Below are positions 19,942 through 37,182 of a stretch of 41,558 bases of DNA, one piece after another. The stretch spans positions 1-41,558 of the forward strand of contig JBQCHW010000070.1 of assembly GCA_051954315.1 (NCBI GenBank), written 5' to 3'. Position 1 is the stretch's first letter; each line of letters begins with the position of its first letter. The stretch is from Solirubrobacterales bacterium. Lineage in GTDB: Bacteria; Actinomycetota; Thermoleophilia; Solirubrobacterales; 70-9. Made by a program: the position numbers and the translations under genes. The notes under the pieces were generated by a model. That model did not search any database, was not told where the DNA came from, and was given only the letters and a program-made list of their open reading frames with translations.

Positions 19942-20499
19942 GTGTCAAGCGATTCTCACAAGAGCGAGATGAAGCCCGAGATCGACCTTCTCGTCGACTT
20001 CGTCAACACCCGCGACCTCGAGGAGGAGACGGATTCGATCACCGATCCCGCCCAGCTAGGGGCCTGGATCGCCGAGCGCACCGGCGAGCACCTGCCGGAG
20101 CTGCAGGCAGAGGATGTAGGGCGGCTACAGGGCCTGAGGGAATCGATCCGGGCGCTGATGCACACCAACAACGGCGGCGAAGTGGGCGAGGCCGACCTGG
20201 AGCCACTGCGCGAAGCCGCTGAGCGCAGCCGCTTCCGCCTCGGCTTCGACCCCGGCGGAGGCCTAGAACTGAAGCCCGCCCGCGCCGACCTCTCCGGCTT
20301 CGAGTCGAGCCTCCTCCTCGCCCTCGAGCACCTCCAGTGCCACGAGGTCTGGCCCCGCCTCAAGGCCTGCACCGACGACGGCTGCCAGTGGGCCTTCTAC
20401 GACACCACCCGCAACCGCTCCCGCACCTGGTGCTCGATGGACGTCTGCGGCAACCGCCAGAAGACCAAGCGCTACCGGAAGCGCAAGAGCGCCGCATAA
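19942..20499 (+). CDS. CGNR zinc-finger (ABATE-family) putative regulator
   Basis: C-terminal zf-CGNR signature WCSMDVCGNRQKTKRYRKRK. GTG start. Confidence 0.85.
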   Translation: MSSDSHKSEMKPEIDLLVDFVNTRDLEEETDSITDPAQLGAWIAERTGEHLPELQAEDVGRLQGLRESIRALMHTNNGGEVGEADLEPLREAAERSRFRLGFDPGGGLELKPARADLSGFESSLLLALEHLQCHEVWPRLKACTDDGCQWAFYDTTRNRSRTWCSMDVCGNRQKTKRYRKRKSAA

Positions 20500-20509
20500 C
20501 CAGGCCGGA

Positions 20510-20539
20510 GGGACAAGCCGCCAAAAGGCGGCTTGTCCC
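20510..20539. terminator. Bidirectional terminator hairpin between convergent genes
   Basis: Perfect 13-bp stem gggacaagccgcc / ggcggcttgtccc with loop aaaa. Confidence 0.65.
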
Positions 20540-20545
20540 AATCAC

Positions 20546-21112
20546 CTAACCGAGGAAAAGCGAGGACGGTTTTGTGACGGTGTAGTTGGAGGTCCAGGTG
20601 CCTTCTGACGCGCAGAAGAAGCTGCCGCTGATCTTTTTCAGTTTAGTCGTGTTGATCGAGATTTTCGCCGGCGAGCCACCGATCAGAGTGCCTATGTCGG
20701 TTCCGGGGGATGCTCCGCCCCCATAAACGCAGCTGATGCCGAGGCTTGTGTCATTGACTGTGACTTCGTTCCCGATGGCAAATACTGTGCCGCTGGGGAA
20801 AATCGTCAATTCGCCTCCTTTGAGAGTGACCATGTCCTTGGAGCATTTTTCTGTAGTGATGGACCCGGCACCCCCTGCGCGTACTTCGGTGTTGGTGGTT
20901 ACGGTGCCAGTAGCGGTCGATCCGGTGCATGTGGTTTCGATGCCGGCTTTCATCACAGAAGAGGTGCCGGGGGTCATGGTTGCTTCCAGAGCTCCTGTGT
21001 ACTCGGTGCCCGCCGGCGATGTGAGGGTCGGGGTGGCTGAGGCGCTGCTGGCAAAAGCCATCAGCGAAGCAGCGGCCAAGGCCAACAGGCCGAACATCTT
21101 TTGATGCTTCAT
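20546..21112 (-). CDS. Small secreted Thr/Gly-rich protein, divergent family member P2
   Basis: RBS AAGGAG sits 7 nt upstream of the ATG. Signal peptide ends SSASA. It shares the N-terminal LTSP.GT motif and the C-terminal G.FFC / SLFLG pattern with P1, P3 and P4 but has only four Cys. Confidence 0.8.
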   Translation of the reverse strand: MKHQKMFGLLALAAASLMAFASSASATPTLTSPAGTEYTGALEATMTPGTSSVMKAGIETTCTGSTATGTVTTNTEVRAGGAGSITTEKCSKDMVTLKGGELTIFPSGTVFAIGNEVTVNDTSLGISCVYGGGASPGTDIGTLIGGSPAKISINTTKLKKISGSFFCASEGTWTSNYTVTKPSSLFLG

Positions 21113-21213
21113 GTGATTTCTCCTTGAGTGGGTGTTTGAAGCGCAGTTGTCCTAACAGACAGCTGCCGATAACTCAAGAACAATTGAGGAAAGCTGGCGA
21201 GTTTGCGAGAACG

Positions 21214-23805
21214 TCAGGCGACGCCGATCTCAGCGACCGGCTTCTTCGTCCCATCCCCCTGACGCGCCTGCACCGGTTTCGTCTTCGCGCAGAGGGCGGC
21301 GAACTTTTCCAGCAGCGCTTCCAGCTTCTCCGGGCGAACGGCTGCGCGCTGCTGCGCAAGCGGCTCTTGGTGGGCGCCTCCGGAGAGCTCCTTGACCGCG
21401 GCATCGATTTCGCGGGCGATCTCGGGGGTCCAGCGGACCATGTGGAGGTTGTGGACGCGGATGTTGCGAACCTGCCGCTCGACCGTATTGCCGAGGACGT
21501 AGACCTCGATCATCCGCTCGTAGGCCTTGCGCAGCTCCAGCTTCCAGCGCTGCGCTTCGGCCTCGTAACGCGGGTCATTGCCCTTATATAGAGGCGTCAG
21601 CTGACTCTTCAGCTCGTGCCTCAAGGCCTTGGCGCGCGCCATCGGCGAGCGCGCCTCCCAGGGCAGATCGTCAGAGACCACGCCGACATCGTGGTAGCGG
21701 CGTTCGAGCGCCTGCCCATGTAGCTCGACCCCGAGCTCCTCGGCCTTCTCCTGCAGGTAGTAGACGAAGACGAGGTCGTGGGTGAGGACGACGACCTGGC
21801 GGTGGGCGGCTTCCTCGACCAGGCGGGCGGCGACGTGCTCGCGGCGCTGGTGATCGAGGGAGGAGACCGGGTCGTCGAGGAGGATCGCGCTGCGCTCGCT
21901 GCTGACCCGCAGCTCGGCGAGGAAGAAGGCGGTCGCGAGCGCGGTCTGCTCGCCGGTGCTCAAGACCTTGCCGACCTTCTCCCGCCCCTCGGCGCGCAGC
22001 TTGAACTGGACCGCCGGCTTGCCTTTGCTGGCCGAGGCCTTCAGCTCGACGCGGCTGGCGATTGGGTCGAGCTCGCTCATCTCCTGCTCGACCGCTTCCC
22101 GCAGGCGGTCGGTGATCGCCAGGCGGCTGAGCTCGCGGATCCGGTTGGAGATCGAGGCGGTCGAGAGCTCCCGGCGCGCCGCTTCGCGGGTGGCGATCGC
22201 CTCCAGGCTCTCTATATAGGCGAGGACATCGGCGCGCGCCTCTCCGACCGCCTGCCGCGCCCGCAGCTGCCGCAGGCGCTCCTGCACCCGGGCGCGCTCG
22301 CGCTCGTTGCGCAGGACCGCGAACCCTTCGGCTTCGGCGACCTGAACCGCGACGTAGTCGCGCAGCGGCTTCAGCTCCAGGCCCCCGTCGAGGGAGGGCT
22401 CGCTGCGGCCGGTGACGATCGCCAGCCGGTCGGCCAGCGCCGCCAGCGCCGCGTCGGCCGGCTCCTGCAGGTGCTCGCCGGCAGCAGCCACCGCGACCTC
22501 CGCGTGGTGGGACAGCTCGCCGAGGTCCGGCAGCGCTTCCAGGTGCTCGGTCAGCAGCGCGTCGACCTGCCGCACCTGCTCGCGCAGGTTGCCCGAGACG
22601 AAGGCCTCGAAGCGCCGCATCCGCTCCCGCCCCTGCTCTTCCAGGTCCTGCTGGCAGAGGGGGCAGGTGGCGTCGCCGGCCTCGTTCGGGAAGGCGCCGT
22701 CGCCGGCTTCGACGAAGCGCCGCGCCGCCTCCCACATCTCCCGCCAGGCCTCGCCGCCGGTCCCCGGCTGCGGCTGGTCGGCGAAAGCCTCGGCGGCAAC
22801 CTGGTCGACGGCGGCCGAGGCGCGCGCCAGCCGCGTGCGCAGCTCGCCGATCTCCTCCAGCGCCTCATCGTCGAGCCGCTTCCAGGCGTCCTCGAGCTCG
22901 GCGGCCAGCCGCTCGACCGCCGCCGCGCGCTTCCGCGCCGCGGCCTCCAGCTCACGGCTGCCGTCGGAGGCGATCGCCGCCTCTGCCTTCTCCAGCTCCC
23001 GCAGCTCCGCCAGCTCCTCCTCGCCCAGCGCGCCGAAGGCCTCGACCTCCGCCCGCGTGGCTTCGCCCGCCTCGACCCGCGCCAGTAGCGCCGCCGCCTC
23101 CGGGTCGTCCAGCTCCGGCAGCTCGGGCAGCGCGTCCCGCAAGCCGTCGATCTGCTCGGCCAGCTCCTCCGCCAGCTCGCCCTGCGCCTCGACCAGTTCC
23201 TTCAGCAGCCGCAGCGGCCGCGGCGTGTGTTCGATCGTGTTCGACTTGCTGATGCAGAAGTCGGCGCAGCTGGCGTCGAAGGCGGTGATCGCGGAGAGGA
23301 TCCGCGGCGCCTCCTCGGCGAGGTCGACCTCCACCACCCGCTCCTCGCCTTCGATCGCGATCACGAACTCTGCCGTCTGCGGCGCCTCCGCCCGGCCGGG
23401 ATCGAAGACGTCGTGAAGCACCTCGCCCGGTTCGGCGGCCCGGCAGACCCGGCGCGCCAGCCGCCCGTAGCCGCTCTTGCCCGCCCCGTTCTCGCCGAAG
23501 ACGACGTTGAGGCCGGGGCCGAAGGAGAGCGCCTGGTCGCCGGCGAGGCTGTTGATGTTCTGCAGGTTGCGGATCTGCCGCAGTTCCACCGTCCCGTAAG
23601 CGCCCTCGTCGGCCGGCAGGTCGACCAGCCCTAGCGGCGGCAGCTCAGCGTCGCCGCCCCCGAGCAGCGCCGCCAGCACCCGCCCCCGCCCCGCCTCGTC
23701 GAGCGGGCCGTCGCAGAGCAGCCGCAGCAGCCCGCGCTGCCAGGCGGGCAGCTTCTCCGACCAGTTGAAGATCCGCTTCTGGAGGAACACGTCCCGCTCG
23801 GGCAT
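21214..23805 (-). CDS. Rad50-like ABC-type ATPase of the AAA_13 (RloC/PrrC-related) type
   Basis: Walker A GENGAGKS (aa 104-111). ~500-aa Ala/Glu/Leu/Arg-rich coiled-coil insert with CPLC at aa 381-384. ABC signature LSTGEQ (615-620), Walker B ILLDD (641-645), H-loop LTHD (674-677). ~185-aa C-terminal domain. Confidence 0.8.
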   Translation of the reverse strand: MPERDVFLQKRIFNWSEKLPAWQRGLLRLLCDGPLDEAGRGRVLAALLGGGDAELPPLGLVDLPADEGAYGTVELRQIRNLQNINSLAGDQALSFGPGLNVVFGENGAGKSGYGRLARRVCRAAEPGEVLHDVFDPGRAEAPQTAEFVIAIEGEERVVEVDLAEEAPRILSAITAFDASCADFCISKSNTIEHTPRPLRLLKELVEAQGELAEELAEQIDGLRDALPELPELDDPEAAALLARVEAGEATRAEVEAFGALGEEELAELRELEKAEAAIASDGSRELEAAARKRAAAVERLAAELEDAWKRLDDEALEEIGELRTRLARASAAVDQVAAEAFADQPQPGTGGEAWREMWEAARRFVEAGDGAFPNEAGDATCPLCQQDLEEQGRERMRRFEAFVSGNLREQVRQVDALLTEHLEALPDLGELSHHAEVAVAAAGEHLQEPADAALAALADRLAIVTGRSEPSLDGGLELKPLRDYVAVQVAEAEGFAVLRNERERARVQERLRQLRARQAVGEARADVLAYIESLEAIATREAARRELSTASISNRIRELSRLAITDRLREAVEQEMSELDPIASRVELKASASKGKPAVQFKLRAEGREKVGKVLSTGEQTALATAFFLAELRVSSERSAILLDDPVSSLDHQRREHVAARLVEEAAHRQVVVLTHDLVFVYYLQEKAEELGVELHGQALERRYHDVGVVSDDLPWEARSPMARAKALRHELKSQLTPLYKGNDPRYEAEAQRWKLELRKAYERMIEVYVLGNTVERQVRNIRVHNLHMVRWTPEIAREIDAAVKELSGGAHQEPLAQQRAAVRPEKLEALLEKFAALCAKTKPVQARQGDGTKKPVAEIGVA

Positions 23806-23919
23806 CGCTGAAGTTTTTCAGAACAGTCCAGCCGGTCCAGCCGGCGAGTCCGTGCGGCCAGCCTGGCTCTGGGATGCTGTGCCCCTCGCTCGTCTGAGCC
23901 AACCAGTCTGGAGAGATAT

Positions 23920-25467
23920 ATGTCGCGTTCGCGTCTTTCGCTGTTGTCCCTTGCCCTGCTCGCCTTGGCCGCTCTGTCCCCCGCCGCCCCGGCAGCTGCC
24001 GAACAGCTCGCCTACCAGTGCGGCAGCGACATCTGCCTGATCGACCCGGACAACCCGGCCGACGAGGGCAAAGACATCACCAACACCGCCACCGGCTCGG
24101 AGTGGTACCCGAAGTGGTCCCCGCTCGGCAACGCGATCGCTTACATGGGGCTCTATCCCGGCGACAACACCTGGGAGATCTACTCGATCGATCCCGCCGA
24201 ATCGGATCCGTCGGCGACCAACATCTCCCAGACCCCCGACCGCGATGAGAACAGCGAGTTCGACTGGTCCGCGGACGGGACCAAGATCGCCTTCGGCTCC
24301 CACAACCTCGCCAGCGACAACCCGCTCCAGGGCGAGGCCTACGTCGCCCGTGCCGATGGGGCCTCGCAGCCGGTCGCGATCGGCTCGAGCCCGGCCAACG
24401 AGGGCGCGCCGCACTTCTCGCCGGACGGCAACACCGTCGTCTTCGCCCGCGAAAGCCAGATCCTGATGGCCCCGGCCGACGGGACCGGGACCCCGACCCC
24501 GATCTCAGCTGCCGGCGTCGACTGGTCCCCCGACGGCCGCTACCTGGCCGGCTTCCGCTACGGCGCCTACCCCTACGGGCTGGAAATCAGCAAGGTCGAC
24601 GGCTCCGGGCGCTACGAACTCGAAAAGCCGATCGACAGCGGCACGCGGATCGACTGGTCCTGCGACTCGACCCGCATCGCCTACGTCGCTGACGAAGAAC
24701 CCAACCTCGACCAGGTTTGGGTCGCACCGACCGACGGTTCCGGCATCGGCGTCCAGATTCCGATGCCGCCCCACTGGTTCGTCCCCCACAACCCCGTCTT
24801 CTCCCCCGACGGCACCCGGATCGCCTTCGATGCCCGGCCCGACAGCGGCCCCGGCTACGAGCAGATCCTCGTCGCCCCCGCCGACGGCAGCGCCCCGGCG
24901 GTTCCGATCACCGATTCGGCCACGAACAACGAACAGCCCTCGTGGAAGCCGGGCCCGGAGTGCGCGGGTCAGATAGCACCGCCGCTAGTGCCCGGCGAAG
25001 GCGGCGGTTCGGGCTCCGGAGGCGGCAGCGGGAGCGGCACCGCCGGCGGCAACCTGCCCGCGACCCAGACCCCGGTGAAGCTGAAGCTCTCCCTGTTCAA
25101 GCAGCCGGTCATCCACAACCACTTCATGACCATCGCCTTCATCGACTGCCATGCGCAGGGCGGCCACCCGACTGGCAAAGTCGCTGAAATCTGCGCCGCC
25201 AACGCGCACGCCTACCCGACCGCGGTGGCGCCGCAGACGGCCTTCCGCCTGGAAAAGCCGAAGGCCTCGAAGCCCCTCTTCGCCAAGGGCGGCGTCAAGG
25301 TCCCCGCCGGCAAGAAAAAGCCGCTGAAACTGAAGATCACCGCCGCCGGGATGAAGCTCCTGAAGCCCGGCAAGACCCTGAAGCTGAAGGTCTCGATCGT
25401 CACCCGCCAGGGGACCGCGAAGCCGGTGAAGAAGACGAAGACGGTGACGGTTAAGGTCCCCAAGTAG
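23920..25467 (+). CDS. Secreted TolB-like PD40 beta-propeller repeat protein with Gly/Ser linker and Lys-rich C-terminal domain
   Basis: Signal peptide ends APAAAE. Repeated W/FSPDG..IAF motifs. GGGSGSGGGSGSG linker. Lys-rich tail. Confidence 0.85.
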   Translation: MSRSRLSLLSLALLALAALSPAAPAAAEQLAYQCGSDICLIDPDNPADEGKDITNTATGSEWYPKWSPLGNAIAYMGLYPGDNTWEIYSIDPAESDPSATNISQTPDRDENSEFDWSADGTKIAFGSHNLASDNPLQGEAYVARADGASQPVAIGSSPANEGAPHFSPDGNTVVFARESQILMAPADGTGTPTPISAAGVDWSPDGRYLAGFRYGAYPYGLEISKVDGSGRYELEKPIDSGTRIDWSCDSTRIAYVADEEPNLDQVWVAPTDGSGIGVQIPMPPHWFVPHNPVFSPDGTRIAFDARPDSGPGYEQILVAPADGSAPAVPITDSATNNEQPSWKPGPECAGQIAPPLVPGEGGGSGSGGGSGSGTAGGNLPATQTPVKLKLSLFKQPVIHNHFMTIAFIDCHAQGGHPTGKVAEICAANAHAYPTAVAPQTAFRLEKPKASKPLFAKGGVKVPAGKKKPLKLKITAAGMKLLKPGKTLKLKVSIVTRQGTAKPVKKTKTVTVKVPK

Positions 25468-27053
25468 TGCTGATCGACGGCCTGCCGCTGGAAGCTCCCG
25501 CCGCGCCGCTGGGCGACCTGCCGCGGGTCGGCTTCGACGCCGGGCCCGATGAGCTGGCGCTGGTGTCGGCGACCCGCTCGATGACCTGGCGTGAGCTCGA
25601 GGAGGAGAGCGAGCGGTTGGCCGGCGGCTATCGGGCGATGGGGCTGGAGGCGGGCGACCGGGTCGCCTCGCTGATGCCGAATCGGATCGCCCTGATCGTC
25701 CACTACCTCGCCTGCTTCAAGGCCGGGCTGGTGGTGACGCCGCTGAACTACCGCTACACCCACCGCGAGATCGACCACGCGCTGCAGGTCAGCGGCGCCA
25801 AGACGCTGCTCGCGCACGTCGAGCGGACCGAGGACGTGGGGGAGAGCGAGCTCGCGGGGGCGCTGCCGCTCGGCCTCGTCTCCTACGCCGACCCGGAGGG
25901 CCCGGGGCGCGCCGGGGACGTCGACTGGCCGCACGACTTCGACCGCCTGCTGGAGAGCGAGCCGCTGCCGCCGGCGCCGCAGCCCGACCCGGCCGAGCCG
26001 GCGGCGATCTTCTTCACCTCCGGCAGCACCGGGCCGGCCAAGGGCGTCACCCACACCCGCGAATCGCTGCGCTGGATGATCGCCAGCGCGGCCGCGGCGT
26101 TCGAGCTCGGCCCCGAGGACGTCTTCCTGCCCGGCTCCTCGATGTCTCACATCGGCTCCTTCCTCTGGGCGCTCAGCACGCTCTCGGTCGGCGGCGAGGT
26201 GGTGGTGGCGCGGACCTTCGACAGCCACGAGCTGCTGCCGTTGCTGCGCGAGCGCCAGCCGACGGTGCTGGCGATGATCCCGGCGGCGCTGCTGGCCCTG
26301 GTCCGCGACCACGACCTGCAGCCGCATGACTTCGACTCGCTGCGGATCTGCCGCTGCGGCTCGGACAAGGTCTCGACCGAGCTCCTGCACGAGTTCGCCG
26401 CCGTCGCCGGCTTCCCGATCGTCGAGGGCTACGGGATGACCGAGGTCGGGCTGGCGACGCTGAACCCGCCCTCGGGCGTGGTCAAGCAGGGCTCGATCGG
26501 GCGGCCGATCAACGGCTTCAGCATCGCCCTGCGCGGCGAGGACGGCGAGCCGGTCGGCGCCGACGCGGTCGGCCGCATCTTCATCCGCACCCGGGCGCGG
26601 ATGTCCGAATACTGGGAAGCGCCGGAGGCGACCGCCGAGGTCTTGAGCGAAGACTGGATCGACTCCGGTGACCTCGCCCGCGCCGACGAGGACGGCTACC
26701 TCTGGTTCTTCGGCCGCAAGAAGCAGGTGATCGTCCACGACGGCTCCAACATCAGCCCCTACGAGGTCGAGGGCGCCCTCAACGAGCACCCGGCGATCGC
26801 CCTCGCCGGCGCCGTCGGCGTCCACGACGAGGTCCACGGCGAGAACGTCCGCGCCTACGTCACCCTCCGCGACGGCGCCACCCGCCCCGCCGCCGCCGAC
26901 CTCATAGTCCACTGCCGCGACCGCATCGGCTACAAGGCCCCCGAGGAGATCCTCTTCCTCGACGAGATGCCCCTCAACCCCACCGGCAAGATCGACCGCG
27001 TGGGCCTGAAGAAGATGGCCGAAGAGCACCTGCACCCGCACGGGTTTAATTAG
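25467..27053 (+). CDS. AMP-dependent acyl-CoA synthetase/ligase
   Basis: Adenylate-forming motifs FFTSGSTGPAKGV, EGYGMTE, SGDLA and NPTGKIDR. The GTG overlaps the upstream TAG by 1 nt. Confidence 0.88.
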   Translation: MLIDGLPLEAPAAPLGDLPRVGFDAGPDELALVSATRSMTWRELEEESERLAGGYRAMGLEAGDRVASLMPNRIALIVHYLACFKAGLVVTPLNYRYTHREIDHALQVSGAKTLLAHVERTEDVGESELAGALPLGLVSYADPEGPGRAGDVDWPHDFDRLLESEPLPPAPQPDPAEPAAIFFTSGSTGPAKGVTHTRESLRWMIASAAAAFELGPEDVFLPGSSMSHIGSFLWALSTLSVGGEVVVARTFDSHELLPLLRERQPTVLAMIPAALLALVRDHDLQPHDFDSLRICRCGSDKVSTELLHEFAAVAGFPIVEGYGMTEVGLATLNPPSGVVKQGSIGRPINGFSIALRGEDGEPVGADAVGRIFIRTRARMSEYWEAPEATAEVLSEDWIDSGDLARADEDGYLWFFGRKKQVIVHDGSNISPYEVEGALNEHPAIALAGAVGVHDEVHGENVRAYVTLRDGATRPAAADLIVHCRDRIGYKAPEEILFLDEMPLNPTGKIDRVGLKKMAEEHLHPHGFN

Positions 27054-27326
27054 CCTGAGCGCATGGGAAGCGGCGATACGACAGCTGGTGCGGGGATCCA
27101 TCCTGACCTCGCCGTTGCTCTCGGCGCCGAAGCCGAGCGCGGCTACGACCTATCGAAGGCAAGACGCCGTCAAGTCGGCCCGCCATTGCTGGCCGACCCC
27201 TCCGCGTGATTGAGCTTCCGCCACTCGTGATCCTTACGGTGCGGCATAGAACTCGCCAAGTGGAGCTAAAGATAGGGGCCTGGAGGTACCCGGCTGACCG
27301 CCGACCCGCTCACTCGCCGAAGCGCA

Positions 27327-27596
27327 GTGATAACTCATACTCCACCACCTGCTGTAAAGTCGGTAAACGTGACGAATGGAGTTGGGCTCAAGGCAGCAGC
27401 GCGCGCTGAGATGATCAGGCGGCTTTCCGTCGCCGGTCAATCGGTTGCCGCAGGGGAGTCGACCCTGTTTCACGCCAAGCTTGAGCGGGACCGCGAGATC
27501 AAGAAGGCAAGTGAACTTGGGCTCAGTCGCCGTGAAGTCGCTCAGGCAGTTGGACTTACCGCGGCGGGCATTCAGCAGATCCTTTCCCGGACCTAG
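27327..27596 (+). CDS. Small protein with C-terminal helix-turn-helix (possible controller/regulator)
   Basis: C-terminal LGLSRREVAQAVGLTAAGIQQILSRT looks like an HTH. The stop lies 6 nt before the methyltransferase ATG. The start codon is uncertain (GTG 27327, GTG 27366 or ATG 27411) and there is no clear SD. Confidence 0.45.
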   Translation: MITHTPPPAVKSVNVTNGVGLKAAARAEMIRRLSVAGQSVAAGESTLFHAKLERDREIKKASELGLSRREVAQAVGLTAAGIQQILSRT

Positions 27597-27602
27597 CTCG
27601 GG

Positions 27603-28988
27603 ATGCCACAAGCGAAGAAGCGTTCGGGCCGACAACCCGGCTCAAGTCCCGAGCCAGTGGCGATGATCCGGGTCTCCGATCTTCCTCGCCAGCGGCGCTT
27701 CAAATTCGATCCCGAGAGCATGGGTCGATTGACGCACCACCTTTTCCGTTTCCCGGCGAAGTTTCACCCGCCGGTTGTCAGACAGCTGATTCAGGACTAC
27801 ACGGAGGAAGGAGAGACGATCCTCGATCCGTTCTGTGGTAGTGGCACGCTGCTGGTGGAGGCTTCGGTCCTCGGGCGCAACTCCATCGGTATTGACGTCG
27901 ACCCGCTGAGCGTCTTCGTCACCAACGTCAAGGTTCATGCGCTGCGCCAAAGCAGTATCGAAGAAACGACAGAAGGGCTGGCCGAGATCCTCGACGAGCT
28001 ACAGCGAACTCCTCAGGAACTCGCGAGCTTCAAGACCTCCGACCTAAATCCGCACGAGTATGAGGCTGAGCTGGACGGTGCATGGGTTCCGGAAATCCCC
28101 AAGCTCCATCACTGGTTCTACCGCTATGCCATCGTCGACCTAGCCCGCCTGCTTGAGGCCATCGACAAAATCGACGCACCTCAGACGCACCGCGACTTCC
28201 TCCGCCTCATTTTCGCCGCTACCGTTCGAGGGGCGTCGCGGGCTGACCCTGTACCTGTCTCAGGGGTTGAGGTGACCAGAGTCATGCTTGAAAAGGAGCG
28301 GAAAGGGAGATCGGTTGATGTAATTCAAATCTTCCGAAAAAGACTGCGATGCGCCGTTGAGGAGATGGGCACCTACCGAGATGCGCGGGTCGCGAGCGCA
28401 AATGCTCGCGCCTATCGAGCCGACATTGCCTCTCTGCGGACGAATCTGGCACCTCAAGTTGATGTTGTAATTACCTCTCCGCCCTATCACGGCGCGGTCG
28501 ACTACTACCGTCGCCACCAACTCGAGATGTTCTGGCTTGGTATGACTAAGGATCAAACCGACCGCCTTAGGCTGCTCGAGCACTATCTCGGCCGCCCGCG
28601 GGTGCCGGAAAGGCACCGCTATGTGGCGGGAGAGAGTTTGGAGTTAGCAAAGACCCAGAGTGTCGAGGCGATGATGCGGAAGGTCTCCCCAGAGCGAGCT
28701 AACGCTTTTAAGCACTACTCAATTGGGATGTCTCGAGCCTTTCAGAACATTGCACGGCGAATGGATGAGGGAGCGTGCTGCATCCTTGTCGTCGGCCACA
28801 GCAGTTGGAACGGAGGTTCAATTAACACGTCTCAGTTGATGGCCGAACTAGCCCAGCCGCATTTCAAACTTGGAGAACGTCTCTATTACCCGGTGAAGAA
28901 TCGGTATATGTCATATGAGCGTCACAATGGGGCCAGTATCGACCAAGAGCACGTGCTGATTTTTGAGCGAACGGCGATGGAGGCTTAG
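27603..28988 (+). CDS. DNA methyltransferase (N6-adenine or N4-cytosine), motif I upstream of motif IV
   Basis: AdoMet motif I ILDPFCGSGTLLVEA (F77-G81, nt ~27831) preceded by FPAKFHPPVVRQLI. Catalytic motif IV ITSPPYHG (S292-Y295, nt 28476-28487). C-terminus EHVLIFER. Confidence 0.85.
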   Translation: MPQAKKRSGRQPGSSPEPVAMIRVSDLPRQRRFKFDPESMGRLTHHLFRFPAKFHPPVVRQLIQDYTEEGETILDPFCGSGTLLVEASVLGRNSIGIDVDPLSVFVTNVKVHALRQSSIEETTEGLAEILDELQRTPQELASFKTSDLNPHEYEAELDGAWVPEIPKLHHWFYRYAIVDLARLLEAIDKIDAPQTHRDFLRLIFAATVRGASRADPVPVSGVEVTRVMLEKERKGRSVDVIQIFRKRLRCAVEEMGTYRDARVASANARAYRADIASLRTNLAPQVDVVITSPPYHGAVDYYRRHQLEMFWLGMTKDQTDRLRLLEHYLGRPRVPERHRYVAGESLELAKTQSVEAMMRKVSPERANAFKHYSIGMSRAFQNIARRMDEGACCILVVGHSSWNGGSINTSQLMAELAQPHFKLGERLYYPVKNRYMSYERHNGASIDQEHVLIFERTAMEA

Positions 28989-29022
28989 CCGACGTGCATA
29001 ATGCGACTCGCGAGGACCGCTG

Positions 29023-31644
29023 ATGACCGACGATTCCACAGACGACCTCAAGCCTGCGAATTCTCCCCAGGTGACGGGTGAGGGCTCCGAGGAGAACGGG
29101 GATTCAACCGAGGGCACGCTCGCAGCGGCCCTGGATGCAGACGGCGAGTTTCAGGAGAATCTCACGGTTGAGATCGCCTATGAGGTAATACAACTGCTTT
29201 CTGAGCAGCTGTACTCATCGCCTCTAAAGGCGATCGAGGAGCTGGTGGTCAACTCGTGGGATGCCGACGCGTCTGAGTGTCGGGTCTTCGTTCCCACTCC
29301 CGATGTTCTTGCAGATATTGCGCCGACCACGGCCATCGCTGTGCTGGACAACGGCCACGGAATGACGGTGGACGACCTGCGGAATCTTTGGCACGTAGGA
29401 CTTTCAAGTAAGAGGGATGCAGGATGGGAGCAACGTGCCAACCGGACTCAGATAGGGAAGTTTGGAATTGGCAAGCTCGCGAGCTACGCGATTGCCCGTC
29501 GGGTTACCTACTTGACCAAGGTGCAAGGCGAGCCAGTCCGAGGCGTCACTATCGATTTCGAGCAGTTCCGAACGGCCGAGAATGGGGATGGCGATGTTGA
29601 GTCGGTAACCCTACGAATGATGCGGTTTGATGAGCCGGATCGACTTCTGGAGGAGCCACAGGTGGCATCTCTCTTGGAGGGCCTCGATGTCGGAGGGGAC
29701 ATACTGAGTGAGAGTGGGTGGGAGCACTGGACGCTTGTTGTTCTTGAGTCTTTGAAGCCGAAGGCCGCCGATGTAACGGAAGGGCGGCTCCGTTGGGTTC
29801 TGTCCACCGCAATGCCAGCAGCGTCAGATTTCAATCTGTATCTCAATAAGACCAATGTCGCTAGTTCAAAGCTGACCGGTGATTTTCCGGTTGATTTTAC
29901 GATCACGGAGGTCAACCCTGAGCGGCTCAAATCCTTGAAGAAGGCGACGGGAGTTGAGTGGACTGTAGACGGTGACCGTCTCGTGTCAGACTCATTCCCC
30001 GTCGGGGTGCGCGGTCGGATTCGGGTGGCGGAGCGGTCACTCTATGCGGCCAGTGGTAAGAGCGAGGACCTTGGACGCAGCCATGGGTTCTTTGTTCGGG
30101 TCCGCGGTCGCCTAGTCAACGAGACTGATCCTCTATTTGGCGCGAAGCCAGTGTCGTTCACGACCTTTTACAACTTGCTGGCAGAGGTCGATGCGGATGA
30201 TCTAGACAGCTTCATCACCGCTCCTCGGGACGACGTGGTGCAGGCGACTGAGAAGGAGCACTTCAGGTCTCTGCTGTTGGAGTTATTCAATGAGGCACGC
30301 ACTCGTCACGAGGCACATCTCGATGAGAAGGACAAGGAGGACCAGAAGCGCGAGGAGTCGCGGATATATGTCAATCCGCAGCTTGTAGAGCGGCCAGTGG
30401 CCGATGTCTTGGTTAACGAAGCAGGCGGCTCTGAGGCCAAAGACTGGCTCCTACTTGACCCCGGGGAGGACGATGAGGCACTGCAGCGCCTCATCGAGAG
30501 CCTCTATGAGGAGAGCCCGGAGCGACGCCGGTACACCTACAAGTACACGGGTTCTGGCAATCAGCAGGCGATTGCGCGATTCGATGCAGATCAGGGGATT
30601 TTCTGGGTCAACGAGGACCACGATCTCGTCATCGCAAATCAGGACGATCCAGAGGCGCGACGACTATTGGAGGTCGTGATCACTGCCGAGGCGATGCTTG
30701 AGGTTTATCTTCGCGAGGCGGCCATTGATCCGCGTGTGGTCGAGTTTGTCCTCACCCGACGCGACCAATTGCTTCGGAGTCTGGCGCGGGATGAGCTTTA
30801 TTCGCTCAAAGCAATCGCAGCGTCAATCCGAAGCGCCCGCGACTCAGCAAACGAGCTCGAGATTGCTGTTGTCGGCGCGTTGCGGTCTCTTGGCTTCGTA
30901 GCCAAGCACGTTTCGGGCTCCGGGACTCCCGATGGAGAGGCGTGGTACGAGGTATATGGCCCGGAGCAAAAGACGTTCACGCTAGAGGCGAAGTCATCCA
31001 AGGATGTTCCCTCGCTGGGAAATCTCGACTTCGGCGGTCTTCGCCAGCATTACGAGGACAAAAGGGATGAGGGGGCGGAGGGCTGCCTCCTTGTTGCTCC
31101 AGCCTATCCGGGGCAAAATGAGCCAGAGGAAGGTCAGGTCGGCAAACGCGCTACGACCCAGAGCGTCTCGTGCTGGACGATTGACAGCCTCTCGGCGGTC
31201 GTTGAGGCTGCCGAGGTCCGTCATATCACTGCCGAGGAGATACAAAAGATCGTTCTCACGAAGTTCAAGCCGGGTGAGGTCAAAGAGGCCGTCGACCTGC
31301 TGCTCAATGACCCGGGTTGGTCGCGTCGCTCGCTCTACATGGCAATCCTCGACAGCTTGGAGGCTCTCAAAGGCCACATGCCGAATAGCCCACGAACCGT
31401 CGACATGCTTGCCGCCCAGATAGCGATGAAGTCGGATTTTGCCGGTATCGAGCGAGACGACATTCTCGACGCCGCCGAGCAGATGGCCCAAGCCAGCAAG
31501 GGAATGCTGCACGTGACGCGGACCGATGGGACGATTCGAGTCCCCGGATCGCTTGATGAGTTACGCCGGCGCTTGAAGGGCATGACTGGCGACCACGGTG
31601 AGCCACGCCGCCGAGGCACGTTTCGTGATCGCTCGGACTCGTAG
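29023..31644 (+). CDS. GHKL (Bergerat-fold, MORC/MutL-like) ATPase fused to a C-terminal PD-(D/E)xK nuclease-like module
   Basis: N-box EELVVNSWDAD (aa 72-82), G1 DNGHGM (109-114), G2 GKFGIGKLA (145-153). C-terminal Mrr-like pattern ELEIAVVGALRSLGF...TPD637GEAW...FTLE655AK657SS. Confidence 0.8.
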   Translation: MTDDSTDDLKPANSPQVTGEGSEENGDSTEGTLAAALDADGEFQENLTVEIAYEVIQLLSEQLYSSPLKAIEELVVNSWDADASECRVFVPTPDVLADIAPTTAIAVLDNGHGMTVDDLRNLWHVGLSSKRDAGWEQRANRTQIGKFGIGKLASYAIARRVTYLTKVQGEPVRGVTIDFEQFRTAENGDGDVESVTLRMMRFDEPDRLLEEPQVASLLEGLDVGGDILSESGWEHWTLVVLESLKPKAADVTEGRLRWVLSTAMPAASDFNLYLNKTNVASSKLTGDFPVDFTITEVNPERLKSLKKATGVEWTVDGDRLVSDSFPVGVRGRIRVAERSLYAASGKSEDLGRSHGFFVRVRGRLVNETDPLFGAKPVSFTTFYNLLAEVDADDLDSFITAPRDDVVQATEKEHFRSLLLELFNEARTRHEAHLDEKDKEDQKREESRIYVNPQLVERPVADVLVNEAGGSEAKDWLLLDPGEDDEALQRLIESLYEESPERRRYTYKYTGSGNQQAIARFDADQGIFWVNEDHDLVIANQDDPEARRLLEVVITAEAMLEVYLREAAIDPRVVEFVLTRRDQLLRSLARDELYSLKAIAASIRSARDSANELEIAVVGALRSLGFVAKHVSGSGTPDGEAWYEVYGPEQKTFTLEAKSSKDVPSLGNLDFGGLRQHYEDKRDEGAEGCLLVAPAYPGQNEPEEGQVGKRATTQSVSCWTIDSLSAVVEAAEVRHITAEEIQKIVLTKFKPGEVKEAVDLLLNDPGWSRRSLYMAILDSLEALKGHMPNSPRTVDMLAAQIAMKSDFAGIERDDILDAAEQMAQASKGMLHVTRTDGTIRVPGSLDELRRRLKGMTGDHGEPRRRGTFRDRSDS

Positions 31645-31710
31645 CTTCTCAACTTGAGGCTACAGTCGGCTATTCGGCCGTTCACTAGCTCCGCTCCCAT
31701 CGTATCCCTG

Positions 31711-31738
31711 CCATTTCGGGCACTAGTGCCCGAAATGG
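31711..31738. terminator. 28-nt perfect palindrome downstream of the GHKL gene (terminator or binding site)
   Basis: ccatttcgggcactagtgcccgaaatgg is its own reverse complement. It lies 67 nt after the stop at 31644. No T-tract follows. Confidence 0.45.
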
Positions 31739-31807
31739 GGCGCCGATTCAGCTGCGGTTGGAATGATCTCCAGTGAGCGGACGCCCACGTGCAGGGACTT
31801 CCTTCGA

Positions 31808-31880
31808 TGGAGCTAGGCGGATTCGAACCGCCGACCTCCTGGGTGCGATCCAGGCGCTCTGCCAGCTGAGCTATAGCCCC
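31808..31880 (-). tRNA. tRNA-Ala (anticodon CGC)
   Basis: A 73-nt cloverleaf read by hand: acceptor GGGGCUA/UAGCUCC with G3:U70, D arm GCUC/GAGC, anticodon stem CCUGG/CCAGG with loop AUCGCAC, T arm GGCGG-UUCGAAU-CCGCC, discriminator A. CCA is not encoded. Confidence 0.9.
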
Positions 31881-31966
31881 GGGGCTTGGCGGATGGGAAG
31901 TTGCTCCCATTGCCGCGCAAGCGACAGGATAACCCCATAGTCTTTGGGAGCCTCCTGAGGGACAGC

Positions 31967-32908
31967 ATGAGCATCCTCGACGACGCCATTCGAGAGCACC
32001 TGGAACTGAAGCGCGCCCATGGCGCGGATGAGGCCGAGCTGAAACGGCTCGAGGACGAGGCCTTTGGGCCGCCCGGGCGGCCGGAGGAGCCCGATCCCTT
32101 CGCCGAGGCGCCGACGGAGTTCATGGCGACCCCAGATGTGCCGGGGGAGGCGGGGCCGGCGGAGTCGAGCGGCGGGCGGCGGATCAACATCGCCGACCTG
32201 CAGGAGCCGCCCCCGCCAGAGCGCGTCGAGGAGCGCGAGCAGCCGCGGGTGGAGGCGACGGATGCGATCGAGCCGGAGGCCGAGGCCGCACCGCTCGCCC
32301 CGGCCGAGGACGCGGGCCAGGCGGCGCCGCCGGCGGAGGAGGACCTGCCCCTCGCCGAGGAATCGCCGGCGATGGAGCACGAGATCGTCGTCGAGCCAGC
32401 CGAGGACCTCGCCCCGGAGCCCGCCGCCGAGGCCGCGCCAGGCGAGGAGACCCAGGAGCGCCACGCGATCGCCGAACAGCCGACCGAACTCTTCGACATC
32501 GAGGCCGAGATGGGGACCGAAGACGCCCCCGCCGAGCCCGCGGCTGAGATCCAGGCCTCCCGCACCGAGCCCCTCGCCGACGACGAGGACGAAGAGGACG
32601 AGGAGTTCTGGAGCGAGCAGCGCCTCTCCGACGAGCTCGATCAGGCCCTGGAGGCCCCGCCGCTCACCGACGAGCACGAGGTGGCGCCCCGCACCGACGT
32701 CCACGAGATCCCCGCGCCGGTCGCCGACCCCTCGGCCCCCGTCCAGGAGGACGAGGACGAGGAGGACGACGCAGCCCGCCCGGACTACGACCCGGACACC
32801 GGCCACGAGGACGTCCTCGAGGACACTCCTGACTTCCTCGAGGACGCCCCCGAGGACGACGAGCTCTGGTTCGAGCAGAAGCCCCCGAAGGACTTCGACC
32901 TCGACTGA
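31967..32908 (+). CDS. Highly acidic Asp/Glu/Pro/Ala-rich protein (313 aa), probably disordered
   Basis: ATG 31967 is preferred over the listed 31886, which abuts the tRNA. Short helical N-terminus MSILDDAIREHLELKRAHGADEAELKRLEDEAFG, then a low-complexity acidic body. GC3 is high. Confidence 0.65.
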   Translation: MSILDDAIREHLELKRAHGADEAELKRLEDEAFGPPGRPEEPDPFAEAPTEFMATPDVPGEAGPAESSGGRRINIADLQEPPPPERVEEREQPRVEATDAIEPEAEAAPLAPAEDAGQAAPPAEEDLPLAEESPAMEHEIVVEPAEDLAPEPAAEAAPGEETQERHAIAEQPTELFDIEAEMGTEDAPAEPAAEIQASRTEPLADDEDEEDEEFWSEQRLSDELDQALEAPPLTDEHEVAPRTDVHEIPAPVADPSAPVQEDEDEEDDAARPDYDPDTGHEDVLEDTPDFLEDAPEDDELWFEQKPPKDFDLD

Positions 32909-32960: not shown

Positions 32961-33641
32961 CTACGAGATGTACATCGGCGTGACGCCCGCTTCGTCTACC
33001 TCCAGTGTGTAGGACGCTTCGAGCCTGGCGGCCGAAGGACAGAGGACCCCGCCTTCCTCCTTGATGAGTTCGGTATTGACGCCTGCAGGCATCGTCAATA
33101 CGGCATCGCTCCCCGCGGTATCTGTGCTGAAGGTGCCTTTGAAGGCACCGGTCCGGTTGTACTTGCAGCTCCCAACCGTTGTGCTGTCGACGACAACTGT
33201 GATGCTGCGCGCCACCTGGGCGCAACTGTTGCCGCGGATCGTAAATTCATCTGACCCACTAACAGACTGGAGGCACCAGGGCACGCCGTTCCCGACGTTG
33301 AATGTGGGCGTGAAGTTGCCGAAGCTTCCTGTGCACTCGTTCGACCCGTTGAAGACCGCGCCGGTGCCTCCGGACGCCACCGTGGTGATGTTCGCTTCGA
33401 CTTCGGTGCCGTTGTTCTTGATCACTTCCGCTGTCATCGTTGTGCTGGTGCATTCGGTCAGCGTGTTACCGCTGGCGTCCTTGAGCTTGCTGTTGCCGAC
33501 GTTTGTCACTTTCACTTTCGTACCCACGGCCACCCGCGTTCCTGTCGGGCTTGTGAGTTGAGCCGCGGAGGCACTCCCTGCCAAGGCGAGGATCGCGAAC
33601 GCAGCCACGGCCATTGAGGTCGTCAAGACCCTTCTATTCAT
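32961..33641 (-). CDS. Small secreted Cys-containing Thr/Gly-rich protein, family member P3
   Basis: Signal peptide ends GSASA. Six Cys. Closest to P4 (LTSPTGTR, ECTS.TMT, NNG.EVE, NECT, GNG.PWCL, IRGNSCA, STT.G.CKY, EEGG.LCP, P.YIS). Confidence 0.85.
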   Translation of the reverse strand: MNRRVLTTSMAVAAFAILALAGSASAAQLTSPTGTRVAVGTKVKVTNVGNSKLKDASGNTLTECTSTTMTAEVIKNNGTEVEANITTVASGGTGAVFNGSNECTGSFGNFTPTFNVGNGVPWCLQSVSGSDEFTIRGNSCAQVARSITVVVDSTTVGSCKYNRTGAFKGTFSTDTAGSDAVLTMPAGVNTELIKEEGGVLCPSAARLEASYTLEVDEAGVTPMYIS

Positions 33642-34897: not shown

Positions 34898-35842
34898 CTA
34901 GCGAGCCCCCACATCGGCCGGTGCGGCCCAGAGCACCTCGTGCAGCCGCTTCAAGCAGTCGTCGACAAAGTCGAGGTCGCCGCCGACCCGCATCCGCCCG
35001 CGGTCGCCGTCGAGGAGCGCCGCGAACCAGGTGTCGACGGTGCCGATCGCCCAGGCGTCTTCGGACGGTTTGGCCTTGACGCAGCGGACCGTGCCGCCGG
35101 CGCTTACGTGCACAGTCAGGGTGTCCGAGCCGCGCTCACCGTCGAATCCGGTTGTGCCGACGATCCCGAGTTTGATGCTCCGCTCTTGGTGTTCGGGAAG
35201 TTGCAGCAGGGGAAGGGAGGCTCGCAGCGCGGTCGTCATCTCGCCGACCGTCAGGCCCCCTTCCTCTTCGCCTTCGACGTGCTGCTGCCGCCAGCGGCCG
35301 AGCCCCGCCATCAGCGCCATCGCGTGCCGGGTCTGGTCGCTCATCTGGTAGCGCTTGCGATGCCCTTTGCCAGGGGTCTCATAAAGGAGGCTCCAGGAGA
35401 GCAGCTGGTGGGTGCGGCGGCTGACCTGGTGGAAGGTCATCTCCGCGGTCGCCTCAGCGAGGTCGGTGGCGGAGCGCCCGCCCTGGCCGAGCTCCTCGAT
35501 CCACCCGTATGTCCACATCTCGCCGAGTAGGCCGCAGACTGTCCACAACCCTTCGCCGCTACCGGGGCCGGTGACCCAAGGAAGCGAAGCTTTCGAGTAG
35601 GAGTCGATCAGGTGGTAGAGGTCCCGCCCGGCCGGGCTGAGGCAGTGGATCACGGTCGAGGGAACGCCGGCGACCTCTTCGCGGTCGACGAGCCCCAGTT
35701 CCGCCAGCTTGCGCGCATGCCGGTAGACAGTGCGCGGCGCATAAGTCGGAACCTTTTCGGTCAGCTTCTTGGTGCGCAGAGACCGAGGGCCGAGGGCCAT
35801 CAGGATCGGCCCATTAGCCCCGTTTCCGAGCAGCTTCAACAT
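34898..35842 (-). CDS. Winged-helix (HxlR/ArsR-like) transcriptional regulator with an SCP2-like C-terminal domain
   Basis: Two wHTH-like segments (TKKLTEKVPTYAPRTVYRHARKLAELGLVDRE; MTFHQVSRRTHQLLSWSLL). 15 nt upstream of lipA. No alternative start exists in the open upstream frame. Confidence 0.6.
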   Translation of the reverse strand: MLKLLGNGANGPILMALGPRSLRTKKLTEKVPTYAPRTVYRHARKLAELGLVDREEVAGVPSTVIHCLSPAGRDLYHLIDSYSKASLPWVTGPGSGEGLWTVCGLLGEMWTYGWIEELGQGGRSATDLAEATAEMTFHQVSRRTHQLLSWSLLYETPGKGHRKRYQMSDQTRHAMALMAGLGRWRQQHVEGEEEGGLTVGEMTTALRASLPLLQLPEHQERSIKLGIVGTTGFDGERGSDTLTVHVSAGGTVRCVKAKPSEDAWAIGTVDTWFAALLDGDRGRMRVGGDLDFVDDCLKRLHEVLWAAPADVGAR

Positions 35843-36194
35843 GTCGGCGACGGAGGTCTCCTCGCCGTAAAGCTTTTTCGACTCCGCTTCGATGGGCTGG
35901 CCGCCTCTCCCCGAATAGTCCGCCGTCCCTGACTGGGTACGCGACGATATCCAGCGTAGCTCGCCCTGTCACTGAGTGCCAACTGCTAACGAGCGACTTT
36001 TGTCACTCGCTGACCCTCTAGGTGATACACCCATTTGCAGGGGAAAGACAAGAACCGTCCTATCCGCTGCATCGCCCGACGACGAGGTAAACGTCCGCTG
36101 GTCTGCTCACACACCCTTGATCGCTCGCGAATCGCTGGTAGAAGCTCCAATCGAAACATCCCGTCCATTCGGGCGGAAAGCAAAGAGCCCTCGA

Positions 36195-36274
36195 GACGCG
36201 CGTCTTGCAGGCAAGCGCCCCGAGAGCTCGATCAACGCCCAGCCAAGCTGGGCATCAAGGAAAGGAAGTATCTC
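36195..36274 (+). promoter_or_regulatory. Conserved 5' leader of P4 with hairpin 36237-36253
   Basis: Aligns with the P3 leader. Hairpin gcccagc-caa-gctgggc differs from the P3 hairpin by two compensatory base-pair changes. Confidence 0.55.
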
Positions 36275-36973
36275 ATGAGCAAGAAGCTCATCACGGCCTG
36301 TATGGCTCTGTTCGCGCTTGCGGCGTTTGTGTTGCCGGCGTCAGCCTCTGCAGTCGAACTCACACATCCGACAAGCACGCGGCTCGCTACCAACGTGAAG
36401 ATCGATGCGACAAGCATCGGGATCCAGAAGTTGACAGACCCCTCGGGCAACCCGCTGGTTGAATGCACGTCTGCGACAATGACAGGAACGCTGACCAAGA
36501 ACAACGGCAGCGAAGTGGAAGGCAGCATCGAAAGCACCACCTTCAGCGGAACTGGCACGAACGGCGAGTGCACATCGGTCATCGGAGGACTCACCGTCGA
36601 CACGAACCTCGGCAACGGTACGCCTTGGTGCCTCCGCGCGACCCCGACGATGAACGCAGATGAATTCCAAGTTCGTGGAAACTCCTGCGCCAACGCATCG
36701 CGGCCGATCACATTTGTCCTAACAAGCACAACGATCGGTACCTGCAAGTACTCGCGGAGCGAACCGATCAGGGGGACATACACCACAGATACAAACCCCA
36801 ATCCGCAGGATGCAATCCTGAGCCTCTCTGGAAGTGGTGAAACAGGCACGACCGACACCAATTTCACGAAGGAGGAAGGATCCTTCCTTTGCCCCGGCAG
36901 CGGAACGCTGGACATGGAATTCACACTGGAGACAGACACCACGCCGACCGCGTCACCTCTGTATATCTCGTAG
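36275..36973 (+). CDS. Small secreted Cys-containing Thr/Gly-rich protein, family member P4
   Basis: ATG 36275 follows aaggaaaggaag; the longer listed ORF from 36035 is not supported. Signal peptide ends ASASA. Six Cys. Confidence 0.85.
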   Translation: MSKKLITACMALFALAAFVLPASASAVELTHPTSTRLATNVKIDATSIGIQKLTDPSGNPLVECTSATMTGTLTKNNGSEVEGSIESTTFSGTGTNGECTSVIGGLTVDTNLGNGTPWCLRATPTMNADEFQVRGNSCANASRPITFVLTSTTIGTCKYSRSEPIRGTYTTDTNPNPQDAILSLSGSGETGTTDTNFTKEEGSFLCPGSGTLDMEFTLETDTTPTASPLYIS

Positions 36974-36992
36974 GAGCACTCTCGACGCTATT

Positions 36993-37030
36993 GGTTGGGC
37001 CGCCGGTGTGGGCTGCCCAACCTTTATTTT
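36993..37030 (+). terminator. Intrinsic terminator after P4
   Basis: 12-bp stem with one mismatch (ggttgggccgcc / ggctgcccaacc), loop ggtgtg, then tttatttt. Confidence 0.65.
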
Positions 37031-37182
37031 GAGGAGTCCGGAGCCGCCGGGTGACACAAGTCACTCGGCGCACTCCTGGCGTACCTTGACACCGATGACC
37101 AGAGCCTCCTACGTTTCGGCTGAACTGGAGAGGGCTAGCAACTACTCCGGCAGGGAACTTCATCAGAAGAAGGGGTATAGGA

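Follow-up and report, generated by a model that had tools for sequence, protein, structure and literature searches.

GHKL-ATPase restriction enzymes are listed in REBASE and have been predicted from gene neighborhoods since 2008. An N-terminal GHKL domain occurs in two REBASE type II enzymes, R.HgiDII and R.BbrUII, and a putative restriction enzyme that combines GHKL with PD-(D/E)xK, R.VeiORF1182P, was reported in the same literature (Orlowski and Bujnicki 2008, PMC2441816). In B. breve UCC2003 the BbrUII system acts as a limit on transformation (PMC5829577). By sequence comparison, Iyer, Abhiman and Aravind (2008) predicted the paraMORC3 proteins, in which GHKL and S5 domains are followed by a C-terminal restriction-fold domain with E-D-ExK, and which are found both in restriction-modification contexts and, in Proteobacteria and Bacteroidetes, as stand-alone genes (PMC2292703). 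VcSduA of Vibrio cholerae, a Shedu type I-D protein (classification in PMC10441436), joins GHKL to a DUF4263 nuclease; its activity in phage defense was shown in 2025 and needs the ATPase glutamate and the nuclease lysine (PMC12137116). Our literature searches for a studied defense pairing a methyltransferase with a GHKL nuclease gave only VcSduA and comparative papers from 2008 and 2021. Within this architectural class, the literature searched gives direct evidence for VcSduA alone that ATPase and nuclease residues are required in phage defense, and it contains no demonstration of what the ATPase does in GHKL restriction enzymes. Here we describe a locus that resembles these systems, a low-GC islet beside tRNA-Ala(CGC) in contig JBQCHW010000070.1 of a Solirubrobacterales bacterium (the window, meaning the whole stretch of 41,558 nucleotides that was analyzed). 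The islet carries genes for a small putative helix-turn-helix (HTH) protein, a 461-amino-acid (aa) DNA methyltransferase and an 873-aa predicted fusion of a GHKL ATPase with a PD-(D/E)xK nuclease (Table 1).

We read the islet as a mobile two-gene restriction-modification module with an accessory HTH regulator and an ATP-gated restriction enzyme, and we put the probability of this reading at roughly 70%. We favor restriction-modification because of the linkage of the two genes, their conserved catalytic residues, their folds, the precedent of BbrUII and HgiDII, and the mobility of the module. As in type II-like systems, the methyltransferase motifs are intact, and the adjacent gene encodes a nuclease with an intact site and conserved linkage. 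The preliminary description of this DNA had likewise proposed a modification enzyme beside a GHKL-ATPase nuclease, and the N6_N4_Mtase and HATPase_c_3 matches, the invariant PD-(D/E)xK residues and the fold matches bear this out. It went too far in presenting the effector as one without counterpart among the classical types, in a layout never characterized, since R.HgiDII, R.BbrUII, R.VeiORF1182P, paraMORC3 and VcSduA all precede it. It cites Iyer and colleagues for the prediction of GHKL-based systems, and the paraMORC3 architecture was named in that same paper.

The 461-aa protein matches the N6_N4_Mtase (E 7.9e-18) and UPF0020 (E 1.3e-11) profiles, and the PADLOC model MTase_II PDLC03322 covers it over nearly its whole length (residues 33-418, E 1e-37). 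Motif I (DPFCGSGT, residues 75-82) and motif IV (TSPPY, residues 291-295) lie ~210 residues apart, and DPFxGSGT and TSPPY are each at least 92% conserved among 52 homologues adjoining the nuclease gene. These motifs support an active-looking methyltransferase. SPPY is typical of N4-cytosine amino-methyltransferases, and its occurrence here suggests N4-cytosine modification.

The 873-aa protein has more than 1300 homologues, with a full length of ~840 aa. Its residues 67-197 match HATPase_c_3 (E 8e-19), and an alignment of 37 homologues at 45-87% identity shows as invariant E73, N77, D80, D109-x-G-x-G113, G145-K-F-G-I-G150 and T162, which correspond to the four GHKL ATP-binding motifs. Two residues from a flexible loop in the transducer domain, K346 and R352, are invariant in this alignment as well. 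Such strict conservation of an ATP site tells us no more than that selection acts on nucleotide binding or hydrolysis. A sequence search of the Protein Data Bank (PDB) with the whole protein recovered Hsp90 N-domains only. An AlphaFold2 model (mean predicted local distance difference test, pLDDT, 80) was compared by Foldseek with known structures, and its N-terminal ~430-500 residues fit TRAP1/Hsp90 (E 2e-12), the MORC2-DNA structure 9cdh (E 7e-11) and SMCHD1 (6mw7, E 1.4e-9).

Foldseek results for the full model were dominated by the ATPase module, and the C-terminal part was therefore modeled separately (residues 568-873, pLDDT 77). The best matches of this model are HindIII, EcoT38I, EcoO109I, EndoMS/NucS and the BspD6I small subunit, all of them weak (best E 4e-3), and a PDB profile search with the C-terminal 306 residues gave no match. 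The residues of the predicted nuclease core, E613, P-D637 and E655-A-K657, are invariant in the 37-homologue alignment. The ATPase residues, including K346, and the nuclease residues are retained in all 74 full-length homologues of the genome scan described below, down to ~30% identity, and the sole nuclease change is E655 to D in a distant clade. Several of 16 homologues examined give sub-threshold matches to Mrr_cat, FokI_cleav_dom or NA-iREase1. No homology was detected, and no Pfam match found, for the linker that precedes the core (~residues 446-600). Beyond the core, the last ~90 residues weakly fit the winged-helix domains of ORC proteins (~90 columns, root-mean-square deviation, rmsd, 3.3), and 6 of the 16 homologues have a sub-threshold HTH_32 match; this winged-helix-like region may be the part that reads DNA. 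In a library of 1.84 billion proteins the C-terminal module forms 639 clusters at 50% identity. Complete-looking proteins (~810-890 aa) carry it at their C-terminus, its relative position agreeing with that in the window protein, and shorter matches may be fragments from short contigs.

The preliminary description had made its reading depend on whether the ATPase is linked to methyltransferases in other genomes, and it is, across phyla. A scan of 185,579 species genomes confirmed 364 loci; our counts come from 80 listed loci, of which 74 have a full-length gene. The listed loci come from Actinomycetota, Chloroflexota, Acidobacteriota, Planctomycetota, Bacteroidota, Proteobacteria, Spirochaetia and archaea. 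A methyltransferase gene is directly adjacent in 64 of the 74 full-length loci, all from other species, and lies within two genes in 2 more. In 52 of the 74, the adjacent gene encodes a ~440-aa methyltransferase homologous to that of the window, arranged upstream on the same strand (24), downstream on the same strand (18), downstream and convergent (9) or upstream and divergent (1). An unrelated ~296-aa beta-class N6_N4 methyltransferase is encoded directly downstream in 11 of the 74. Other arrangements include a directly adjacent C5 Dcm gene followed by Vsr (L043), a Vsr-Dcm fusion separated from the nuclease gene by one gene, DUF4928 (L062), and a ~440-aa enzyme two small open reading frames (ORFs) away (L060). 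The gap between nuclease and methyltransferase genes is mostly -3 to +30 nucleotides (nt), and overlapping or near-touching reading frames are usual. Methyltransferase type and arrangement track the phylogeny of the nuclease, so the two genes are inherited together.

Relatives on mobile replicons are more distant. Among PLSDB plasmids there was no close full-length homologue, only one distant haloarchaeal member and other GHKL families. The haloarchaeal member is encoded on a plasmid of Salarchaeum japonicum (L164:4016-6661); it has 881 aa, includes D...LEAKG, is 32%, 31% and 22% identical to the window protein in the GHKL, transducer and nuclease regions, and adjoins a divergent 450-aa protein without a family match. 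Phage records likewise held other GHKL families only. P2-like phages carry Dcm beside a 650-670-aa GHKL protein, as in Escherichia phage PhiR44_1 (L165:2522-5570) and Yersinia phage P37 (L166:1486-4531). The GHKL protein of PhiR44_1 is annotated ParaMORC3, and the convergent pair there lies between portal and replication genes; in P37 the pair closely follows a replication gene, where the linear record ends. These two loci show that phages carry a sister family of methyltransferase and GHKL-nuclease pairs.

The composition of the islet sets it apart from its surroundings. In 500-nt windows the GC content is 0.68-0.75 on both flanks and 0.54-0.62 from ~27.0 to 31.9 kb. Positions 27047-31800 have a GC content of 0.584, and 273 other windows of the same size (4754 nt) in this sequence all have at least 0.601, with a mean of 0.673. 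At third codon positions (GC3) the three islet genes reach 0.59, 0.65 and 0.66, compared with 0.90-0.97 in flanking genes (0.97 and 0.91 on either side, 0.97 in lipA), a gap of ~0.3. The three ORFs (27327-27596, 27603-28988 and 29023-31644) all lie on the plus strand with spacers of 6 and 34 nt. The islet genes leave spacers of only ~280 and 163 nt, in which there is no room for a recombinase, and a search of 26800-32100 for an att-like direct repeat revealed no copy of the tRNA 3' end at the left border.

A metagenome scan with the left-flank protein recovered contigs of close relatives. Three of them (L084, L085 and L125) are 90-95% identical to the window in nucleotide sequence up to position 27046, the stop codon of an acyl-CoA synthetase-like gene, and homology resumes at the tRNA 3' end, at 31801 (L084 and L085), or at 31787 (L125). 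Between these breakpoints they hold ~3 kb of unrelated DNA (L084:11581-14627, L085:11581-14627 and L125:11579-14457), which encodes an RTX calcium-binding protein and a low-GC 346-aa ORF without Pfam match in L084 and L085, and a class I S-adenosylmethionine (SAM)-methyltransferase-like protein and a TIR_2-Mrr_cat protein in L125. The tRNA is 100% identical in L083, L084, L085 and L125, with divergence starting at or within ~20 nt of its 3' end. Because close relatives keep both flanks but have unrelated cargo between them, the DNA on the 3' side of tRNA-Ala(CGC) is a hot spot that varies among strains and whose cargo is exchanged. Homologous recombination within the conserved flanks, and not a site-specific recombinase, most likely accounts for the exchange. 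In an 87%-identical relative (L083) the pair also adjoins tRNA-Ala(cgc), and the gene beyond the tRNA differs. In a 78%-identical relative (L081) the pair lies, with no tRNA there, in an island (L081:1-22586) that looks like a defense island, with genes for a tyrosine integrase, HTH_17, HNH, patatin-like, CHAT-like and HD-domain proteins.

These results support horizontal acquisition of a recombinase-less islet, as the preliminary description had argued from composition and position. Its AT-rich segment from about 27.1 kb to the tRNA is real in both GC and GC3, its three closely spaced co-directional genes agree with the ORF coordinates, its placement of the islet on the 3' side of the tRNA is confirmed by ARAGORN, and its limits of 27054-31807 are correct to within a few bases, as judged from relatives that lack the islet. 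The missing recombinase follows from the size of the spacers, and the variable slot of the sister contigs adds to the case for acquisition. We rejected a tRNA-targeted integrative island for want of recombinase room and of a tRNA-end repeat; the borders are simple replacement breakpoints.

How might such a module work? As a restriction-modification system, the 461-aa enzyme would methylate a specific motif of the host DNA, with N4-cytosine as the candidate modification. The 873-aa restriction subunit would dimerize, by analogy with MutL, Hsp90 and MORC, GHKL proteins for which dimerization and ATP-driven N-terminal closure are established. By the same analogy, ATP binding would close an N-terminal gate over DNA held by the transducer/middle region, and this closure would permit cleavage by the C-terminal PD-(D/E)xK nuclease. 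The C-terminal helical/winged-helix region would read sites, such that unmethylated ones are cut and methylated ones spared. A dimer model has been proposed for VcSduA (PMC12137116). The module probably entered this genome by replacement of cargo in the tRNA-Ala(CGC) slot. It is tempting to speculate further that the family represents a distinct mechanistic class, in which a MORC-like GHKL dimer topologically clamps or loops DNA with ATP and then licenses the nuclease at unmethylated sites, and in which members without a methyltransferase are derived sensors of the Shedu kind. We hold this idea tentatively and consider it rather doubtful. If true, it would make the pair a minimal two-gene prokaryotic prototype of methylation-sensitive MORC action.

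Several points weigh against a restriction-modification module gated by ATP. The family is known from sequence and predicted structures alone, the best Foldseek match of the nuclease fold is weak, neither Pfam nor PADLOC detects a significant family in residues 236-873, and the HTH assignment falls below threshold. The literature searched holds nothing on ATP use by HgiDII-type enzymes, which leaves ATP gating without direct precedent in a restriction enzyme. Six of the 74 full-length loci (L018, L030, L036, L048, L051 and L052) have no methyltransferase within two genes. Because these six keep all catalytic residues, the nuclease can be tolerated where no methyltransferase is linked to it, and they fit a regulated or sensor-type nuclease equally well. 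Five of the six group together in the nuclease tree; by taxonomy, five belong to Gammaproteobacteria, Alphaproteobacteria or Bacteroidota. They also raise the question of how self-cleavage is avoided.

The same orphans lend support to a stand-alone immune nuclease of the Shedu or paraMORC3 type, in which the GHKL domain would sense an infection cue (DNA ends, a phage protein or nucleotide levels) rather than methylation, and the methyltransferase would be an independent orphan or a safety device only. VcSduA, with the same domain order, is a single-gene defense that requires its ATPase and nuclease residues (PMC12137116), and the taxonomy of the orphans recalls the stand-alone paraMORC3 genes that Iyer and colleagues found in Proteobacteria and Bacteroidetes. 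Nevertheless, a nuclease acting alone does not account well for the methyltransferases that adjoin it in 64 of 74 loci: they belong to three unrelated families, the stop codon of one gene often overlaps the start codon of the other, and they are inherited along with the nuclease clades. A Shedu relationship is further opposed by the absence of a DUF4263/SduA_C signal in the window protein (residues 591-873, E ≤ 10) and in 16 homologues (E ≤ 1), and of any Shedu structure in the top 50 Foldseek matches. We regard this explanation as unlikely.

Even less probable is a role in methyl-directed repair or strand discrimination in the manner of MutL-MutH or NucS/EndoMS, in which parental DNA would be marked and the GHKL nuclease would nick the unmethylated strand near lesions or mismatches. 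The GHKL domain is weakly similar to the MutL N-terminus (TIGR00585, E 8.5e-5), the C-terminal model aligns with EndoMS/NucS over 99 columns (rmsd 3.2), and Iyer and colleagues considered occasional recruitment of paraMORCs to repair (PMC2292703). However, the islet is foreign in composition and occupies a variable slot in which sister strains have other defense-like cargo, the family is spread patchily over phyla with swapped methyltransferase partners, and the neighborhood encodes no MutS-like mismatch sensor or clamp-binding partner. A housekeeping repair system should also not be missing from contigs with 90-95% identical flanks. The explanation to which we give least credence is a modification-dependent, type IV-like nuclease that attacks a foreign methylation pattern, with the adjacent methyltransferase unrelated to self-protection. 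The cargo of the same slot in L125 (TIR-Mrr_cat) resembles type IV/Mrr-type nucleases and two homologues have sub-threshold Mrr_cat matches, but type IV enzymes are not systematically linked or translationally coupled to a methyltransferase, as found here in 64 of 74 loci, and none of the modified-base reader domains SRA, EVE, YTH or DUF262 was detected in the window protein or in 16 homologues.

The remaining features of the islet are less certain. The preliminary description placed an HTH gene at its start; L010 and L013 share the ATG of this ORF, and its assignment as HTH is weak, the HTH_3 match being below the Pfam cut-off in both the maximal ORF (E 0.015) and the 61-aa form (E 0.004). 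Homologues occur in 2 of the 80 listed loci (L010 and L013), both just upstream of the methyltransferase gene and 61-74% identical from residue 29. With low confidence, we take the protein to be an accessory regulator of this sub-lineage and a candidate controller. In the alignment with L013 and L010, TGTAAAGTCGGTAAAC is the sole conserved block upstream of this gene, and it may serve as a promoter or operator. At the other end of the islet, the palindrome at 31711-31738 folds as RNA at -23.8 kcal/mol (z -2.3) and is retained with altered bases in L083; it is not a canonical intrinsic terminator because it lacks a T tract. Scans for sigma-70 promoters and intrinsic terminators gave site numbers no higher than in shuffled sequence.

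Table 1. Coordinates of the islet, its genes and predicted domains, and the bordering tRNA gene.
Feature	Position	Strand	Remarks
Low-GC islet, variable-slot cargo	27047..31800	.	stop of acyl-CoA synthetase-like gene to 3' end of tRNA-Ala(CGC)
16-nt element TGTAAAGTCGGTAAAC	27353..27368	+	~45 nt upstream of conserved HTH ATG; candidate promoter/operator
Small putative HTH protein, 61 aa	27411..27596	+	conserved ATG at 27411; maximal ORF from GTG 27327
DNA amino-methyltransferase, 461 aa	27603..28988	+	motif I ahead of motif IV
873-aa GHKL ATPase / PD-(D/E)xK nuclease fusion (predicted)	29023..31644	+	candidate restriction subunit
GHKL (Bergerat-fold) ATP-binding domain	29140..29727	+	~residues 40-235
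Transducer / S5-like middle domain with long helix	29728..30357	+	~residues 236-445
Helical/beta linker	30358..30822	+	~residues 446-600; secondary structure from model
PD-(D/E)xK nuclease core (predicted)	30823..31227	+	~residues 601-735; E613, P636-D637, E655-A-K657
C-terminal helical / winged-helix-like region	31228..31602	+	~residues 736-860; candidate DNA-recognition part
Perfect 14+14-nt palindrome	31711..31738	.	spacer between nuclease gene and tRNA; terminator-like hairpin, no T tract
tRNA-Ala(CGC)	31808..31880	-	ARAGORN; 3' end faces islet, marks right border of variable slot

Gene content varies elsewhere in the window as well. Two paralogous low-GC genes, at 32961-33641 on the minus strand and within 36035-36973 on the plus strand, encode ~230-aa secreted proteins with a signal peptide, which share LT.PT..R...ECTS..MT motifs and end in ..P(M/L)YIS. 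They flank tRNA-Ala(TGC) and lipA; L084 lacks the first of them, and in L085 it is replaced. The second lies in a long low-GC stretch (35700-39500, GC 0.56-0.60) that begins where homology to L084 and L085 ends (~36010). Positions 20494-21263, also of low GC content (0.56-0.57), are missing from the otherwise collinear L084, L086, L125 and L140 and are probably another small insertion. Immediately left of the synthetase gene, 23838-25467 encodes a 515-aa secreted protein whose gene is missing from this place in L084, L086 and L125 and present in L085, while L140 has it at another location (77% identity).

The large, compact two-gene family described here, with both active sites conserved, is convenient for asking how DNA cleavage and the sensing of methylation are coupled to an Hsp90/MORC-type ATP clamp. 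An answer would also be relevant to the proposal that eukaryotic MORC proteins originated in restriction-modification systems. In such loci, current defense-finding models recognize an orphan methyltransferase and nothing else, and these systems are therefore likely to be undercounted.

The likeness to described systems is closest in the ATPase half. The first ~450 residues share their fold and ATP-binding motifs with MORC/SMCHD1 and Hsp90/MutL, whereas the window protein lacks a CW zinc finger, coiled coil, hinge and MutL C-terminal endonuclease, and its effector is a fused PD-(D/E)xK nuclease in a mobile methyltransferase pair. MutL itself was rejected (TIGR00585 at 21.6 bits against a cut-off of 180, residues 66-122 only), and so, with it, were MADS (mad2) and Tiamat (TmtA), whose weak matches are likewise restricted to SAM-binding or ATP-binding motifs. 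VcSduA also combines a GHKL ATPase, a clamp-like middle domain and a PD-(D/E)xK nuclease in one polypeptide, and its essential glutamate and lysine are the counterparts of E73 and K657. It differs in being stand-alone, shorter and equipped with DUF4263 (SduA_C), in contrast to the methyltransferase-linked window family, and Shedu membership was rejected on the linkage, on the fold searches and on the absence of PF14082, from PADLOC results as well.

R.HgiDII and R.BbrUII are, like the window protein, N-terminal GHKL restriction enzymes or candidates encoded beside a methyltransferase, cognate in their case. Their family model, NF050001, is the best curated GHKL match (E 9e-22, residues 49-188 against profile positions 3-137), yet membership was rejected at 77 bits against a cut-off of 550 and 135 of 659 profile positions. 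An hhalign comparison with the member from the P. aeruginosa plasmid pY89, which is convergent with Dcm, aligns residues 41-290 (98.8%), with nothing detectable beyond 290, and the window protein is ~200 residues longer. With paraMORC3 it shares intact GHKL ATP motifs, an S5/transducer domain, a C-terminal restriction-fold E-D-ExK, a predicted restriction-modification context with DNA methylases and Vsr, and a sporadic phyletic spread. Residues 46-412 align by hhalign with the PhiR44_1 protein annotated ParaMORC3 (98.3%), so that the ATPase and transducer correspond but the C-terminal half does not, and the window family is paired mostly with the ~440-aa N6_N4-type methyltransferase, not with Dcm. 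The 873-aa protein thus matches the paraMORC3 architecture, a likeness drawn from architecture and one annotated protein rather than from the original family sequences. The preliminary description had also made its reading depend on the lack of a clean fit to an already named system, and PADLOC, NCBIfam and Pfam give no such fit. The window protein is therefore of a known kind, in a family that curated models cover in the ATPase domain alone.

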